A DNA stretch of 64,000 bases from sequence record PZ386977.1, one strand, 5' to 3'. The first letter of the stretch is position 1. Each line of letters begins with the position of its first letter. The notes beneath the pieces were generated by a model. That model saw only the letters and a list, made by a program, of their open reading frames with translations, was not told the origin of the DNA and did no database searches. Source of the stretch: a phage. Below are positions 7,149-48,428 of this stretch, piece by piece. A program made the translations under genes and the position numbers.

Positions 7149-7429
7149 TTTTCCTCTTTTAAACCACTACGATAATAACATATCATAGTCTTCTGGTCAT
7201 GTACATATCTTTTTACGTCGTTTAACCAGATACGAAATTCTTGAGAGTCTTCAAACGGCATTCCAACCCACGGATTACCATCAATAACCTTTACTTGCCA
7301 TTTCTGGTTATATTCAACAATAGATTCAGGCCATGGCGGATGTAAAGTTTCTTTAGGGCTTAAGGGCACATCCTGGGCACATCCAGCCAAAATACCAATA
7401 GATAATACAACTGCGGTTAATTTAATCAT
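7139..7429 (-). CDS. putative lipoprotein (96 aa)
   Basis: N-terminal signal peptide with lipobox LAGC (MIKLTAVVLSIGILAGCAQ). Confidence 0.6.
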   Translation of the reverse strand: MIKLTAVVLSIGILAGCAQDVPLSPKETLHPPWPESIVEYNQKWQVKVIDGNPWVGMPFEDSQEFRIWLNDVKRYVHDQKTMICYYRSGLKEEKCQ

Positions 7430-8332: not shown

Positions 8333-9466
<1,134 letters not shown>

Positions 9467-43466: not shown

Positions 43467-43646
43467 TTAACCCTTTTTAAGTAAGTCGTAAAAACCACCG
43501 TTCACATGTTTAGGAGCAGAAACCCGACGAGTAGACAGACGATGACATTCAGGGCAAACATCGTTTTCTCGTTCAGAAATCCTTTTAATTTTTTCATATT
43601 CATGACCACAATCTTCAGATTGGCATTTATAGTCGTATAACGGCAT
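43467..43646 (-). CDS. small zinc-ribbon protein (59 aa), FmdB-like CxxC...CxxC
   Basis: Own translation MPLYDYKCQSEDCGHEYEKIKRISERENDVCPECHRLSTRRVSAPK...; below track cutoff. Confidence 0.55.
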   Translation of the reverse strand: MPLYDYKCQSEDCGHEYEKIKRISERENDVCPECHRLSTRRVSAPKHVNGGFYDLLKKG

Positions 43647-43648
43647 TA

Positions 43649-44053
43649 TTATTCCTTAAAATGTGCTTTCAACATTTGATACAAAGACCATGCCTGGTCG
43701 TTATTTTCGATAGTAACTTTCATTACTGGGAATTCTGTGAAATCTTCTATCTGTTCTTGCTCTTCAGAAGCTTGGTATGGATTTTCCACTTCATCAAAGA
43801 ACTCGGCTTCATTCGTGGAGAGCCAGATAAAGTTTTCATCAAGGATATCACCGCCTGTTGCGTATCCAACCATGCCAGTAGATGTCACAATTTTAGTAGG
43901 ACGACCAAGATGGTCAACATCTAATACTTTAAATGGTTCCATGCCAAGACGTCGTGCGTAAATCCCATTATCAGTGTGGTTTTTAATAAACTCTTCTTGG
44001 GCACGTTTATCTTTAAATTTGTACCATGAGTTAACGCGGAATTTATTAGCCAT
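43649..44053 (-). CDS. hypothetical protein (134 aa from ATG 44051-44053)
   Basis: Track ORF 43649..44071 starts at TTG; internal ATG (MANKFRV) has GGAAGGAAA SD. Confidence 0.55.
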
Positions 44054-44280
44054 TAGTAAGTTTCCTTCCAATAAGTTGTACCGTTTTCAGTGATTTCACG
44101 GAAGATACCATAGATAGGCATTTCATCACCGAGTTTTTCGTAAACGTAAACCACTTCGGTGTAGCATAAAAATTCAGTCCAGTTTTTCTGTACAACAACT
44201 AAATCAGGATTAAACAGAACATCTTCAAACTCATCGATGTTTGAATCAGTAGTTACGTTTTTAATGATTTGACGTTTCAT
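44053..44280 (-). CDS. hypothetical protein (75 aa)
   Basis: Track ORF extends to 44325 into the promoter; ATG at 44278-44280 (MKRQIIKN) has GAGGAG SD. Confidence 0.5.
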
Positions 44281-44308
44281 AATATTCTCCTCTTGTTTTG
44301 ATAGGTCT

Positions 44309-44338
44309 ATAGTATCATAGACCATAGTTGTTGTACAT
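44309..44338 (-). promoter_or_regulatory. early promoter, PeSL-like (TGTACA -35, TACTAT -10 inside ggtctat/atagacc repeat)
   Basis: tgtaca 44333-44338, atagta 44309-44314. Confidence 0.5.
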
Positions 44339-44862
44339 CATTTTAGCAAAATAAAATCAACTTGTTCTGCCAATGAACGTCTAAACATTAATTGACAACT
44401 TCCGAGGATGAAATCAGGTGCTTCATAGACCGCGATGTAGTATCCTTTAGCTTTCAAGAGTTCAACATCCACCTGGTCATCAAACCATGCATAAACCGCG
44501 TCAACACTTTCAAATCCAAAATAGAACCCTTGAGCCCAATCTTCGTTCAATTCAAATGTGTGCTCAATTCTATAGTATCTTAAGATATTTTGTTCAAGGA
44601 GTTTGTCTTCATTTACTGTAGGACGATTAGGGACATTATAGTTGTCGCCGTGATGGTAGAAGTTACCTGAGAGTATTCCATGCTTATCAAGGAACTCCCA
44701 TGTTTCTTCAGAGTTGTCGGTGCCCGACCAACCGTAAGGTGAGCGAGGTTCTTTATTCCAGGAGATTTCCCAAATTCTGACGGCTTTACCATCTTCGATA
44801 GCAACTCCTGGTAAAGATTCACGTTGAGTACAAAAACTACGTTCTACGCGGTAAACTAACAT
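44338..44862 (-). CDS. hypothetical protein (174 aa)
   Basis: ORF track; promoter upstream. Confidence 0.55.
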   Translation of the reverse strand: MLVYRVERSFCTQRESLPGVAIEDGKAVRIWEISWNKEPRSPYGWSGTDNSEETWEFLDKHGILSGNFYHHGDNYNVPNRPTVNEDKLLEQNILRYYRIEHTFELNEDWAQGFYFGFESVDAVYAWFDDQVDVELLKAKGYYIAVYEAPDFILGSCQLMFRRSLAEQVDFILLK

Positions 44863-44888
44863 ATTATTCTCCTCTAGTCGATAGATTT

Positions 44889-44917
44889 ATAGTATCAAAA
44901 CTAGAGGAGAAGTAAAC
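44889..44917 (-). promoter_or_regulatory. early promoter (GTTTAC -35, TACTAT -10) inside cctctagt/actagagg repeat
   Basis: gtaaac 44912-44917, atagta 44889-44894. Confidence 0.55.
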
Positions 44918-44921
44918 AACT

Positions 44922-45341
44922 TTATGCAAAAGATGCTGGACAATATTTTTTGATTTGGAACTCAGGAACTACCATGAACTGCCCGGCAAAAACAATGTTA
45001 TAAAGCTTGACACCATCTTCTACCCATTGGTCACTAATAAATCCGGCGATTTGCTTAGTTTTCCATGGCGTTCCATCAGTTGCAGCAGCAATAGTAAATT
45101 CATGGTCTTTTACAACTAAAACAGACCTGCACAGTTTCCATTTGAACGCTTTTTCTTCTGGTTCAATGAATTGGCTTTTAACGTAACCAATGTTGCCATC
45201 AGCATCACGAACTTTAACTTCATTGCGACCAAAAACCGGATCACTTACATAAAGAACTTCAACCAACTTACCAGCGACTTTAGAGCGAGAAGCATCTGAT
45301 ACGTGTACATAATCACCAATAGAGAGATTTGCAATATTCAT
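44922..45341 (-). CDS. paralogue family member 1 (139 aa): KOW/SH3-like N-terminus plus conserved C-terminal DQW(V/I)EDG domain
   Basis: Shares GFISDQWVEDGxKLYNIVFxGxF and ASRSKxAGxLVEV with the next two genes. Confidence 0.6.
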   Translation of the reverse strand: MNIANLSIGDYVHVSDASRSKVAGKLVEVLYVSDPVFGRNEVKVRDADGNIGYVKSQFIEPEEKAFKWKLCRSVLVVKDHEFTIAAATDGTPWKTKQIAGFISDQWVEDGVKLYNIVFAGQFMVVPEFQIKKYCPASFA

Positions 45342-45350
45342 AATAATTCC

Positions 45351-45806
45351 TTAAGCTTTACGAGGAGACACATAGCGAGTGATTTCAGATTCTTTAACAA
45401 CTCGGAAGTCACCTAAGAATACGATATTGTATAACTTTTCACCATCTTCAACCCATTGGTCACTAATGAAGCCGCACATAATATCAGTTTTGTTTGGATA
45501 ACCGTATTCATCGATGAAGTCAAATTCTTTATCAGTCTGGAATTCAACACCTTTGCAAAGGGCCCATTTGAACTGTACATTGGGTTCAGTAGAAGCAAAA
45601 TGAGCGCTCACATGAGTTTCCAAGAATTTAGGACTTACGTAAGCGTACTGAGTTTCAGTTTTTCCAGAACTAGGAATGATTCGAACTTTAACTTCTTTAA
45701 CACGACCAGTACCATTAGTACGAAGTCCGACAACTTCAACCAGACGACCTGCAGCTTTAGAACGAGATGCAGACGATACACGCTTAATTTCACCAATAGT
45801 AATCAT
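45351..45806 (-). CDS. paralogue family member 2 (151 aa from ATG 45804-45806)
   Basis: Same motifs; track ORF start at 45869 lies upstream of the predicted promoter. Confidence 0.55.
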   Translation of the reverse strand: MITIGEIKRVSSASRSKAAGRLVEVVGLRTNGTGRVKEVKVRIIPSSGKTETQYAYVSPKFLETHVSAHFASTEPNVQFKWALCKGVEFQTDKEFDFIDEYGYPNKTDIMCGFISDQWVEDGEKLYNIVFLGDFRVVKESEITRYVSPRKA

Positions 45807-45836
45807 AATTTCTCTCTCTTTGTTTAAGTTGAATTC

Positions 45837-45865
45837 ATTATACTCCATCCGTCCTTGGATGTACA
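45837..45865 (-). promoter_or_regulatory. early promoter (TGTACA -35, TATAAT -10)
   Basis: tgtaca 45860-45865, attata 45837-45842. Confidence 0.5.
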
Positions 45866-45868
45866 ACA

Positions 45869-46363
45869 TTAATTAAGGATATTAACCACAGCACTACGTG
45901 GAACTACACTAAAATCACCTGCATGAACAACGTTCAGAAGTTCAACACCGTCTTCAATCCATTGGTCAGTTACCCATCCATTTACTGGACCGGCGAATGG
46001 GCGTCGAATTGAAACATATTTACACAACAAATCAGTAGGCTCAATAGGCTTAATCAGAGTACCGTACATACAAGCGATGTCCATATCAAAGTGGAGACCA
46101 TCTTTAACAGGTGCTTCTTCAATCAACAGTTCAAAGTCGGTGCTTGGAAGGGCGGTAGTAGAAATTGTACCGTATGAATTTTTAATTTCTAAGAATAACC
46201 AAGGGCCTTCAACTTGTTTGATGAAGTTAACAATAGTGAAACTATTACCTTGAGTGGCACCTAAAATTTCACAAAACTTTTCATAAGCTCGCACTGAAGC
46301 ACCATACCAGTTGATTTGTTTTTCATCTTTCAGGATGTAAGTAGCCGTAGTATTGATATTCAT
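45869..46363 (-). CDS. paralogue family member 3 (164 aa from ATG 46361-46363)
   Basis: C-terminal GWVTDQWIEDGVELLNVVHAGDFSVV; track start at 46405 lies inside promoter. Confidence 0.55.
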   Translation of the reverse strand: MNINTTATYILKDEKQINWYGASVRAYEKFCEILGATQGNSFTIVNFIKQVEGPWLFLEIKNSYGTISTTALPSTDFELLIEEAPVKDGLHFDMDIACMYGTLIKPIEPTDLLCKYVSIRRPFAGPVNGWVTDQWIEDGVELLNVVHAGDFSVVPRSAVVNILN

Positions 46364-46393
46364 AATGTTTTCCTGTTTGGTTAAAATAGAAAG

Positions 46394-46423
46394 ATTATAC
46401 TCCAACCATCCTTGGTTGTAAAC
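46394..46423 (-). promoter_or_regulatory. early promoter (GTTTAC -35, TATAAT -10, 18-nt spacer)
   Basis: gtaaac 46418-46423, attata 46394-46399. Confidence 0.5.
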
Positions 46424-46427
46424 TGGT

Positions 46428-47105
46428 TTATCGCTGTTTTACACTTAACGGGTCAGGATTCTCAGGGACATCTTCAAGGCCAAGCGCATAACGCTGAGCA
46501 TATTTTAACATCAAAATATCTTTAGCACAATCGTGAATACTATCATGGGCAACGAATCCTTTTAGCGTACCCATCGGTAATGGACACATACTTAATCCTC
46601 GTGTCAACGAGTAAGCTTCGATTGCCGTACGAATATCACGTTGAGCCCAGAATTTAACAGGTTCTAATTTATCGGTATCAATATCTGGTTCAAGAACACC
46701 TTCATCACGATAGAGGTCACGAATCAAATCGACCAAGATCGGGAAGTCAAAGCTCATACCACGGCACCACATCTGTGATTTCCATTGGTCAACTTTATTA
46801 GCTCGACAATAATCTAAAAAGATTTTAATGCCTTCAAGCGTAGTGACATCGTCTTCAGACGGGGCCAGGTTTTTACGTGCTTCTGCTGATTGTTCTTTCC
46901 ACCATTTCATAGTGGATTTAGCGAAAACTCGCTTCCCTTTTTGAGAAGCTAAATTAAATTTAATTCGCTTACCTCGTTGAACAAGTTCTTCAAATGTTTC
47001 AACAACTTCAGGGTCCGAATTATATGCAATAACCGCAAGGTCAATAACAGCAGCTTTTGACGTATTGCCGAATGTTTCAAAATCTATAATAACATCAGTG
47101 CTCAT
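46428..47105 (-). CDS. dexA: exonuclease A (DnaQ-like 3'-5' exonuclease)
   Basis: 225 aa; IIDFETFG exo I motif, FVAHDSIHDC C-terminal motif; matches T4 DexA. Confidence 0.9.
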   Translation of the reverse strand: MSTDVIIDFETFGNTSKAAVIDLAVIAYNSDPEVVETFEELVQRGKRIKFNLASQKGKRVFAKSTMKWWKEQSAEARKNLAPSEDDVTTLEGIKIFLDYCRANKVDQWKSQMWCRGMSFDFPILVDLIRDLYRDEGVLEPDIDTDKLEPVKFWAQRDIRTAIEAYSLTRGLSMCPLPMGTLKGFVAHDSIHDCAKDILMLKYAQRYALGLEDVPENPDPLSVKQR

Positions 47106-47114
47106 AATTTTCTC

Positions 47115-48428
47115 TCAAATAAAATGGACGTCAAAACGACCACGAGTTGTGCCGACATACAATAACTGTTTAGCTAATTCTGAATCGGCATAATGGATAC
47201 ACGGTGTATAAACAAAGGCCGTGTCAACAGACATACCCTGGGCCTTATGGAAGGTTGATACTGGTAGTGCCTTCACCTTAGTGAACATACGTTTAGCATC
47301 CCAGAATTCACTCCATGGAGCTTTACCACCTTTATTCCAGAATTTGTATGTTTCTGCGGTCTTAGCCAAAAACAAATTGAATTTATAAAGCTCTTCTTCA
47401 GAAGAAATAACCTTTATATCTTCGCGGACGTATTCTTCATCATCGCCATATGTTTCTACTGTAAGATTCCAGTATCGTATCATATATTCGCCTGAAACAC
47501 CACGTGCTTTAACGAATGTAGACGTTTCTACAGCGTCTCGAATACGAACGAACTGCCCGTTATTGAAAAGCATTTCGGTCATATTTTTGCCATCTAGCTT
47601 ATACGTCTTGGTAAACGGCTCTTGTAGAACAATGACTTCATCTTTAATAAATGGCTTTTCTGTTTCGAGAAGTTTTCGGCGAATAATTGAATTCAACTTA
47701 TCTACTGACTTATTTGTGAATGCCATCATTCGATTTTCGAAAAGGTCTTCAGGAGTTTTAACGACATTAAAATAGTTCATCATATACGATTTAAGGTCTG
47801 TATATCCATGAACACCGTGCCCATCAACTACTTTATCATAAATCCATTTGCCATTACGAATATCAGTCGCAACATCAATAATTGGCGCATTGCTACGTTT
47901 AACTTCTGTAAGGTTGCATTGCACGAAGTCTTTGTGAGTGAAGAAAGGACTTAGATACGCAGTGGATTCGCCTGGGTCTACAGGTCTAATCTGACATCGG
48001 TCGCCAATTCCAATTACTGTGCACCATTTAGGGATACTAGCTAACATTATTTTAAACAGAGAACGGTCGCACATTGACGCTTCATCAAATAACAGTACAC
48101 GGCACAAGGCTAAGTCGGGAACCTTTTTCTGTTCAAATAATACGTTTTCTTCGTATGTAGTTGGGTTGATTTTAAGAATGCTATGAATAGTCGATGCTTC
48201 TTGACCTGCAAGTTTGCTTAGAACCTTTTTAGCAGCATGTGTAGGGGCTGCTAAAATAATACCTGATTCTCCAGAAGAAATAAGGGCTTCAACGATGAAT
48301 CTAGTAAGGGTCGTTTTACCTGTACCAGCAGGTCCATTAATAGTTACGTGATGTTTCTTTTCTTTAATAGCTTTCATAACAACGTTGAAGGCGTTTTTCT
48401 GGCCTTCAGTCAAATCATCAAATGTCAT
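47115..48428 (-). CDS. dda: Dda SF1B DNA helicase
   Basis: 437 aa; Walker A GPAGTGKTT, DEASM Walker B. Confidence 0.9.
   Translation of the reverse strand: MTFDDLTEGQKNAFNVVMKAIKEKKHHVTINGPAGTGKTTLTRFIVEALISSGESGIILAAPTHAAKKVLSKLAGQEASTIHSILKINPTTYEENVLFEQKKVPDLALCRVLLFDEASMCDRSLFKIMLASIPKWCTVIGIGDRCQIRPVDPGESTAYLSPFFTHKDFVQCNLTEVKRSNAPIIDVATDIRNGKWIYDKVVDGHGVHGYTDLKSYMMNYFNVVKTPEDLFENRMMAFTNKSVDKLNSIIRRKLLETEKPFIKDEVIVLQEPFTKTYKLDGKNMTEMLFNNGQFVRIRDAVETSTFVKARGVSGEYMIRYWNLTVETYGDDEEYVREDIKVISSEEELYKFNLFLAKTAETYKFWNKGGKAPWSEFWDAKRMFTKVKALPVSTFHKAQGMSVDTAFVYTPCIHYADSELAKQLLYVGTTRGRFDVHFI

Follow-up and report, generated by a model that had tools for sequence, protein, structure and literature searches.

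The 64,000-nucleotide phage sequence PZ386977.1, referred to here over its whole length as the window, carries between dexA and cef three consecutive minus-strand genes of the MotB/MotB.1 family, which we name C, B and A in the direction of transcription. The window represents an RB69-like T-even phage (Mosigvirus), and the DNA of this region is 97% identical to that of Mosigvirus ATK47. Gene C is the ortholog of motB.1, gene B the ortholog of motB and gene A a second MotB paralogue, motB'. We consider it very probable that the trio is the motB.1-motB-motB' block of RB69-like T-even phages, situated in a dispensable early region flanked by dexA and cef, and that the three genes have the roles proposed below. 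The family and the arrangement of two motB genes with one motB.1 have already been published for RB69 (Patterson-West et al. 2021), and the trio is thus a re-identification. The genes follow one another as dda, dexA, C, B, A, a motB.2-like gene, cef and a goF-like gene, which places the trio in the dexA-cef region where the MotB family of Tevenvirinae is located. This is the order of RB69 (dexA, motB.1, motB, motB', motB.2, cef), whereas T4 has dexA, motB.2, motB.1, motB and cef. The sequence-only reading that preceded this analysis had recognized three consecutive minus-strand genes at 44922-46363, an interval that coincides exactly with genes A to C; it had placed them upstream of dexA, but in the direction of transcription they lie downstream of it.

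The mechanically called open reading frames (ORFs) of B and C open within promoter-like sequences; translation probably begins at ATG 45806 in gene B and at ATG 46363 in gene C. An AGGA lies 9 nucleotides (nt) upstream of the latter, and the former is backed by the N-terminus of the product, MITIGE, which aligns to the N-terminus of T4 MotB, MIINIGE. Gene A starts 9 nt past the stop codon of gene B and has its own AAGGA.

Pairwise BLASTP confirms that the homology is real. A and B align over their whole length, with 45% identity over 145 amino acids (aa) and 98 bits, while C resembles A and B solely across its last 29 to 36 residues (A and C, 59% identity over 29 aa, 45 bits; B and C, 44% over 36 aa, 42 bits). 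Each protein also clears the gathering cut-off of Pfam PF17613 (motB, "modifier of transcription"), a whole-protein score of 25 bits: A scores 85.3 bits (E 5.7e-24), B 131.9 bits (E 2.5e-38) and C 35.7 bits, the last through residues 102-173 of its 178-aa ORF, which cover only profile positions 82-153. Likewise, A and B match the MotB-like phrog_1671 (E 1.2e-52 and 4.2e-64), whereas the best PHROG of gene C is not this one but phrog_2333 (E 3.7e-82). B is 49% identical to T4 MotB over 156 aa and A 40%; gene C is 38% identical to T4 MotB.1 over 137 aa, N-terminal domain included, and aligns full-length with 21 MotB.1 proteins.

What the three proteins have in common is the C-terminal motif G(F/W)(I/V)(S/T)DQW(V/I)EDG..L.N(I/V)V..G.F.VV, with GF in A and B and GW in C. 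We compared profiles built from alignments of 43 MotB and 22 MotB.1 proteins using hhalign. Their C-terminal domains match with a probability of 98.4% (E 5e-15, 36 columns), but their N-terminal domains have no detectable similarity in the same comparison (probability 0.2%), and homology of the MotB and MotB.1 N-terminal domains was rejected on this result. The C-terminal DQW(V/I)EDG motif of the sequence-only reading is therefore borne out for all three genes, while its N-terminal motif, xIGDYVxVSxASRSKxAGxLVEV, holds for A and B and not for C. In the classification of Patterson-West et al. (2021), A and B have both domains of MotB proper (Category 1), the KOW-like VSxxSRSKxAGxLVEV and the DQWVEDG domain, and C does not; C has the architecture of MotB.1 (Category 2), a distinct N-terminal beta-barrel with a MotB-type C-terminal domain, adjoining motB.

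Structure prediction is consistent with this division. MotB was described from HHpred as having a KOW N-terminal domain and a C-terminal domain of OB type, akin to cold-shock DNA-binding domains (PMC7827196), and the N-terminal domain of MotB.1 was grouped with GoF and Frd.2 as an LSm-like barrel of SH3 topology (Kim et al. 2025; PMC12152347). The AlphaFold2 (AF2) model of A, with a mean predicted local distance difference test (pLDDT) score of 85, consists of two five-stranded barrels; that of C (mean pLDDT 76.8, residues 85-108 below 50) has a barrel in each half, the N-terminal half being modelled as a helix and five strands. In C, about 85 aa with no relation to MotB would form the N-terminal domain, which a disordered linker separates from a MotB-type C-terminal barrel; in B, a linker connects a KOW-like N-terminal domain to the C-terminal barrel. 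The KOW/SH3-like N-terminus that had been attributed to all three proteins fits A and B, but C begins with another kind of small beta-barrel. Both barrels of A and the C-terminal barrel of C have a short helical turn that follows strand 4 and precedes strand 5; in the models this pattern is SH3-like rather than OB-like, an OB fold having its helix between strands 3 and 4. Both MotB domains are thus modelled as SH3/Tudor/KOW-like barrels, and MotB may be a tandem of SH3-like barrels, which would be a minor and not decisive refinement of the published KOW-plus-OB prediction. The model matches the KOW domains of Spt5 and NusG and Tudor domains, the tool not specifying which domain is aligned, and Foldseek hits among viral models are confined to MotB-type proteins from T4-like phages, two of which bear the name "KOW domain-containing protein". 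A search of PDB sequences with A and B yielded no relative (best E 0.19 and 0.87, to SH3 and unrelated proteins).

Within the 43-sequence family alignment gene A matches all 39 invariant columns, as it must by construction, including SRSK, VKVR, FKW and DxWVExGxKLYN; it is without the RIIPxxGxxxTQ hairpin extension and has next to no inter-domain linker. In MotB.1-type proteins most of the 38 invariant columns fall in the C-terminal domain, their best-conserved part. The disordered linker of C contains a conserved peptide, DMDIACMYGTLIKP, which is missing from T4 MotB.1. It recurs in other proteins whose C-terminal domain is of the MotB.1 type, in some at the extreme N-terminus and in others between domains, and from these positions it looks like a movable short linear motif, if a putative one.

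The three proteins differ strongly in charge. The isoelectric point (pI) is 8.5 for the whole of B and 10.4 for its N-terminal domain, as against 9.23 and 9.75 for T4 MotB; the corresponding values are 6.7 and 5.2 for A and 4.65 and 4.67 for C. The charge of B agrees with DNA binding of the T4 MotB kind, and that of A or C does not. Given that the C-terminal domains of B and C are acidic, we infer that non-specific DNA binding may be a property of the basic KOW domain at the N-terminus, and that the C-terminal domain common to the three would act otherwise.

Promoter-like sites precede C and B, as had been read from the sequence, that before C being of the sigma-70/T4-early type, and both are predictions from consensus matches (Table 1). 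They are the two best matches in a 5.2-kb scan, a region in which promoter-like sites are no more frequent than in shuffled sequence (15 versus 16.1); only position, strength and conservation support them. Hexamers and spacer of the site before C are identical in 7 Mosigvirus genomes, and its exact pattern occurs 3 times in the window where 0.54 would be expected by chance. At the site before B the -35 is conserved and the -10 varies among relatives (TATAAT, TATAGT, TATAAA); T4 and RB51 have a separate GTTTAC...TATAAT further upstream of motB. Gene A has no room for a promoter of its own. Promoter and leader of B and C form a direct repeat of 64 nt, and the most conserved DNA of the C-terminal domain is present in three copies.

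Table 1. Genes and DNA features of the motB.1-motB-motB' locus, in window coordinates, listed in the direction of transcription
Feature	Position	Strand	Remarks
dda	47115-48428	minus	ORF listing
dexA	46428-47105	minus	ORF listing
Promoter-like site before C, sigma-70/T4-early type	46394..46422	minus	GTTTACA-17-TATAAT; 11/12 consensus matches
64-nt direct repeat of promoter and leader, copy 2	46357..46420	minus	73% identical to copy 1
Gene C, motB.1 ortholog, 164 aa	45869..46363	minus	mechanical ORF 45869-46405, 178 aa
Conserved peptide DMDIACMYGTLIKP in disordered linker of C	46046..46087	minus	residues 93-106; low AF2 confidence
Matching C-terminal-domain stretch, C	45900-45979		three-copy repeat family
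Promoter-like site before B	45837..45865	minus	TGTACA-17-TATAAT; 10/12 consensus matches
64-nt direct repeat of promoter and leader, copy 1	45800..45863	minus	73% identical to copy 2
Gene B, motB ortholog, 151 aa	45351..45806	minus	mechanical ORF 45351-45869, 172 aa
Matching C-terminal-domain stretch, B	45394-45473		three-copy repeat family
Gene A, second MotB paralogue, 139 aa	44922..45341	minus	ORF listing
Most conserved DNA of C-terminal domain, A	44965..45044	minus	three-copy direct repeat, 70% nucleotide identity
MotB.2 ortholog, 174-aa ORF	44338-44862	minus	ORF listing; 34% identical to T4 MotB.2
cef	44053-44325	minus	ORF listing
goF-like gene	43649-44071	minus	phrog_622; weaker goF PHROG matches
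59-aa zinc-ribbon protein	43467-43646	minus	equivalent of T4 39.2 (FmdB-like)

The MotB family is a narrow one. A tblastn search with A finds it in 774 phage records. Of these, 208 have an A-type copy with at least 80% identity, always together with B, and no match falls between 60% and 80% identity; A is thus a discrete clade. A profile search with the C-terminal domain among 1.84 billion representative proteins returned 34 clusters only, all of them phage-type MotB/MotB.1 architectures save one spurious Ig-repeat protein (P0261), indicating that the family is phage-specific. At least four N-terminal arrangements are combined with the MotB.1-type C-terminal domain, the proteins being about 143-169, 180 and 250 aa long; one of these arrangements is a MotB-type KOW N-terminal domain, found in P0180 and P0181. 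Three metagenome proteins (P0027, P0029 and P0031) combine, in a single gene, a MotB N-terminal part of B-type or T4-type with an A-type C-terminal part; judged by their sequences, they would be the chimeras expected of unequal crossover between tandem copies.

All three genes are under purifying selection. Among Mosigviruses the pairwise ratio of nonsynonymous to synonymous divergence (dN/dS) amounts to 0.13 (A), 0.26 (B) and 0.11 (C), values on which positive selection on the paralogues was rejected. The reading frames are intact in all fetched relatives except for motB.1 of the RB69 record, and together with the dN/dS values this disposes of the suspicion that the shared motifs are frame artefacts. 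Synonymous divergence (dS) among Mosigviruses is 0.33-0.36 for A and B, against 0.08-0.10 for the flanking genes, which points to mosaic recombination rather than positive selection. The motB.1-motB-motB' trio is also carried by the Tequatroviruses RB51, Sf23 and RB27. A and B (and C in RB51 and Sf23) are 75-93% identical to those of the window, with A and B at 85-88%, whereas the flanking DexA and MotB.2 are 68% and 35% identical; given that the trio is closer than its flanks, the block has been exchanged between phage genera. The motB.1 of Sf23 is 93% identical to that of the window and that of RB27 48%, and in these three phages MotB.2 lies on the opposite side of the trio from its place in the window.

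In two records, the widely used T4 reference and that of RB69, motB.1 has single-base insertions that occur in no other record compared. In the T4 record NC_000866.4 (about 7291-7309) the gene has one extra G, ATTGGAAGATGG versus ATTGAAGATGG, from which the annotated MotB.1 of 119 aa and 13.8 kDa results, ending in ...DQWIGRWR inside the conserved DQWIEDG domain. T4T, T4 "wild" and MT984581 encode 143 aa with a complete C-terminal domain, ...DQWIEDGVELLNVVHAGEYSVVPRSAVVAILN, and the 143-aa form is found on 256 contigs. In the RB69 record NC_004928.1 (about 8376-8539) two extra T split the gene into an ORF of 132 aa and one of 29 aa, RB69p012; judged by its sequence, the latter, which makes up the "Category 3, 29-aa peptide" of the published phylogeny, is the split-off C-terminal end of motB.1 and not a separate gene. 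The insertions are either sequencing errors or stock-specific mutations. A programmed or recurrent frameshift, suggested by the shift of both records near DQWIEDG, was rejected, as they lie at different positions, three other T4 genome records and the other Mosigvirus sequences (the window and six further fetched genomes) are intact and 143 aa are encoded on 256 contigs. Of modest practical value to T4 specialists is that the reference record truncates MotB.1 in its most conserved domain. Kim et al. (2025) obtained their MotB.1 gene by commercial synthesis, citing NC_000866.4 coordinates and reporting a 13.8-kDa product (PMC12152347), and their plasmid-borne MotB.1 therefore probably lacked the end of this domain.

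Several observations concern the neighbours of the trio. Upstream of the motB.2-like gene, at 44867-44911 on the minus strand, is a hairpin, TTCTCCTCTAGT...ACTAGAGGAGAA, with a main stem of 13 base pairs (bp) and 4 inner pairs, which pairs with the Shine-Dalgarno sequence (-20.2 kcal/mol, z -3.65). At this hairpin lie a GTTTAC...TACTAT promoter-like site and TATAAATC, so placed that transcripts started in the loop are predicted to keep the ribosome-binding site unpaired. Upstream of motB.2 in T4 and RB51 there is a counterpart of this hairpin with another sequence. A repeat of 18 nt, minus strand TGATACTATA(A/G)A(T/C)CTATC, stands at 44300-44317 and 44880-44897 (89% identical), upstream of cef and of the motB.2-like gene, and the cef copy sits in a 7-bp hairpin, GGTCTATgatacTATAGACC. 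The N-terminal domain of GoF belongs to the same LSm-like group as that of MotB.1 (PMC12152347); if so, this short region encodes two members of the group.

What do these genes do? T4 MotB is produced early and is highly toxic to E. coli (Patterson-West et al. 2018; PMC6070864). It binds modified as well as unmodified DNA without sequence specificity, H-NS and StpA co-purify with it and it increases burst size about two-fold (PMC6070864). Patterson-West et al. (2021; PMC7827196) found 75 host genes up-regulated when T4 MotB is expressed; in their account the protein binds DNA itself and prevails over H-NS in the footprint rather than sequestering H-NS. The same study classified 102 homologues and described the conserved C-terminal domain of MotB.1 along with the two motB and one motB.1 of RB69.

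By orthology, gene B would encode an early protein toxic to the host, and like T4 MotB it would coat DNA without sequence specificity, override the H-NS footprint and relieve part of the silencing by H-NS. Gene A is a lineage-restricted duplicate of B, apparently co-transcribed with it; its N-terminal domain is no longer positively charged, and part of a beta-hairpin has gone, as has the linker. As it keeps the invariant residues of the family, it probably retains the core interaction and binds DNA more weakly or differently. Gene C, as MotB.1, would combine this C-terminal barrel with another small beta-barrel at the N-terminus, in a protein that is acidic overall. The shared C-terminal barrel may then serve all three for docking or self-association, while the preference for nucleic acid or partner would be set in each protein by its N-terminal domain. 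That the barrel is a portable module for docking to H-NS/StpA or for self- and hetero-association, which T-even phages would pair with various nucleic-acid-binding barrels at the N-terminus, and that A, with its acidic N-terminal domain, is a modulator or competitor of the DNA-coating B and not a second DNA binder, we put forward tentatively, regarding it as rather doubtful. If true, an H-NS-docking or oligomerisation module would explain how these proteins reshape the nucleoid of the host and why two or three versions are maintained next to each other in phages.

Several points weigh against these assignments. The function of A and B is carried over from T4 MotB at 40-49% identity, the docking role proposed for the C-terminal domain draws solely on its charge and its shuffling between proteins, and the promoters are consensus matches only. 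Mutants and knock-outs of T4 motB.1 have no phenotype (PMC12152347), although the missing MotB.1 phenotype might in part be due to a reference-derived construct without the last 24 residues of the C-terminal module.

The sequence-only reading took the genes for host-takeover or anti-defence effectors with different targets. Host takeover finds support in the literature for the T4 ortholog of B (PMC6070864, PMC7827196). The interpretation is partly supported, and the observation itself is partly confirmed. Anti-defence effectors, each neutralising a different bacterial immune system, are very unlikely. They would suit early genes in a dispensable region, and both the silent divergence of A and B above that of the flanking genes and the swapping of the block between Mosigvirus and Tequatrovirus (identity of 88% for A and 85% for B, set against dexA and MotB.2) are patterns common in accessory counter-defence genes. 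However, no known anti-defence family is matched in Pfam or PHROGs, selection on all three genes is purifying and not diversifying, and the phenotypes of T4 MotB arise in standard laboratory strains and do not implicate a defence system (PMC6070864); different targets are unsupported. H-NS-type silencing of foreign DNA is itself a defence, and an anti-defence role thus partly overlaps with the explanation preferred here.

Hardly credible is a role of A, B and C as transcription regulators of phage genes, which is what the database labels "modifier of transcription" and "transcriptional regulator" say. The label is found in many GenBank records, KOW domains occur in NusG and Spt5 and MotB was historically seen in the pre-replicative complex with RNA polymerase (PMC6070864), but MotB binds DNA without sequence specificity, and RNA sequencing of a T4 motB-amber mutant, in which early and middle genes were unaffected and only a few late genes mildly reduced (PMC6070864), largely refutes the idea for T4 MotB. 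For gene C, action on RNA through the LSm-like N-terminal domain, independent of any MotB-type activity on DNA or H-NS and with the C-terminal domain as a remnant of duplication, is unlikely. The grouping of the MotB.1 N-terminal domain with GoF and Frd.2 (PMC12152347) and the helix and five strands modelled in the N-terminal half of C are in its favour, and the acidity of C argues against non-specific DNA coating. Yet MotB.1 was inactive in an RNA reporter assay (PMC12152347), though with a construct apparently made from the T4 reference record and probably truncated in the C-terminal domain, and that domain, more strongly conserved than any other part of MotB.1-type proteins, is no remnant in decay.

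For the trio as a motB.1-motB-motB' block, with a presumably DNA-coating B, its duplicate A and the two-domain C, our additions to the published family are the SH3/Tudor/KOW-like barrel models, the contrast in charge, the purifying selection, the movement between genera and the insertions in the T4 and RB69 records. Compared with small beta-barrels of the KOW/Tudor kind (the KOW domains of NusG and Spt5, the tandem Tudor of 53BP1), sequence identity is 10-20% and homology is not demonstrable; these families bind the ribosome, Rho or methyl-lysine, and for A to C the likeness is one of modelled fold only. T7 gp5.5, T4 Arn and a phage inhibitor of MvaT (of the H-NS family) are other phage proteins that counter H-NS-type silencers. 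No sequence or fold relationship of these to the MotB family was found, yet the proposed outcome, a change early in infection in how H-NS associates with DNA, is the same.

Among the closest systems, T4 MotB (NP_049626) is the ortholog of B, of the same length class, with the same two domains, basic and located in the same dexA-cef region. A has these two domains too, but is 23 aa shorter and near neutral where T4 MotB is basic, and T4 has no A-type copy. T4 MotB.1, in its 143-aa form of T4T, T4 wild and MT984581, shares with C the N-terminal domain, the C-terminal barrel and the position adjoining motB, whereas C has a 20-aa insert, which contains DMDIACMYGTLIKP, and directly follows dexA with its own promoter-like site; in T4 motB.1 follows motB.2. 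The RB69 block (motB.1 NP_861703, motB NP_861701, ORF010c NP_861700) has a gene order identical to that of the window. Its B and A are of equal lengths (151 and 139 aa) and 94.7% and 95% identical, and gene A is the equivalent of ORF010c; only motB.1 differs, split in the RB69 record into 132 aa and a 29-aa ORF by the two extra T and intact in the window.

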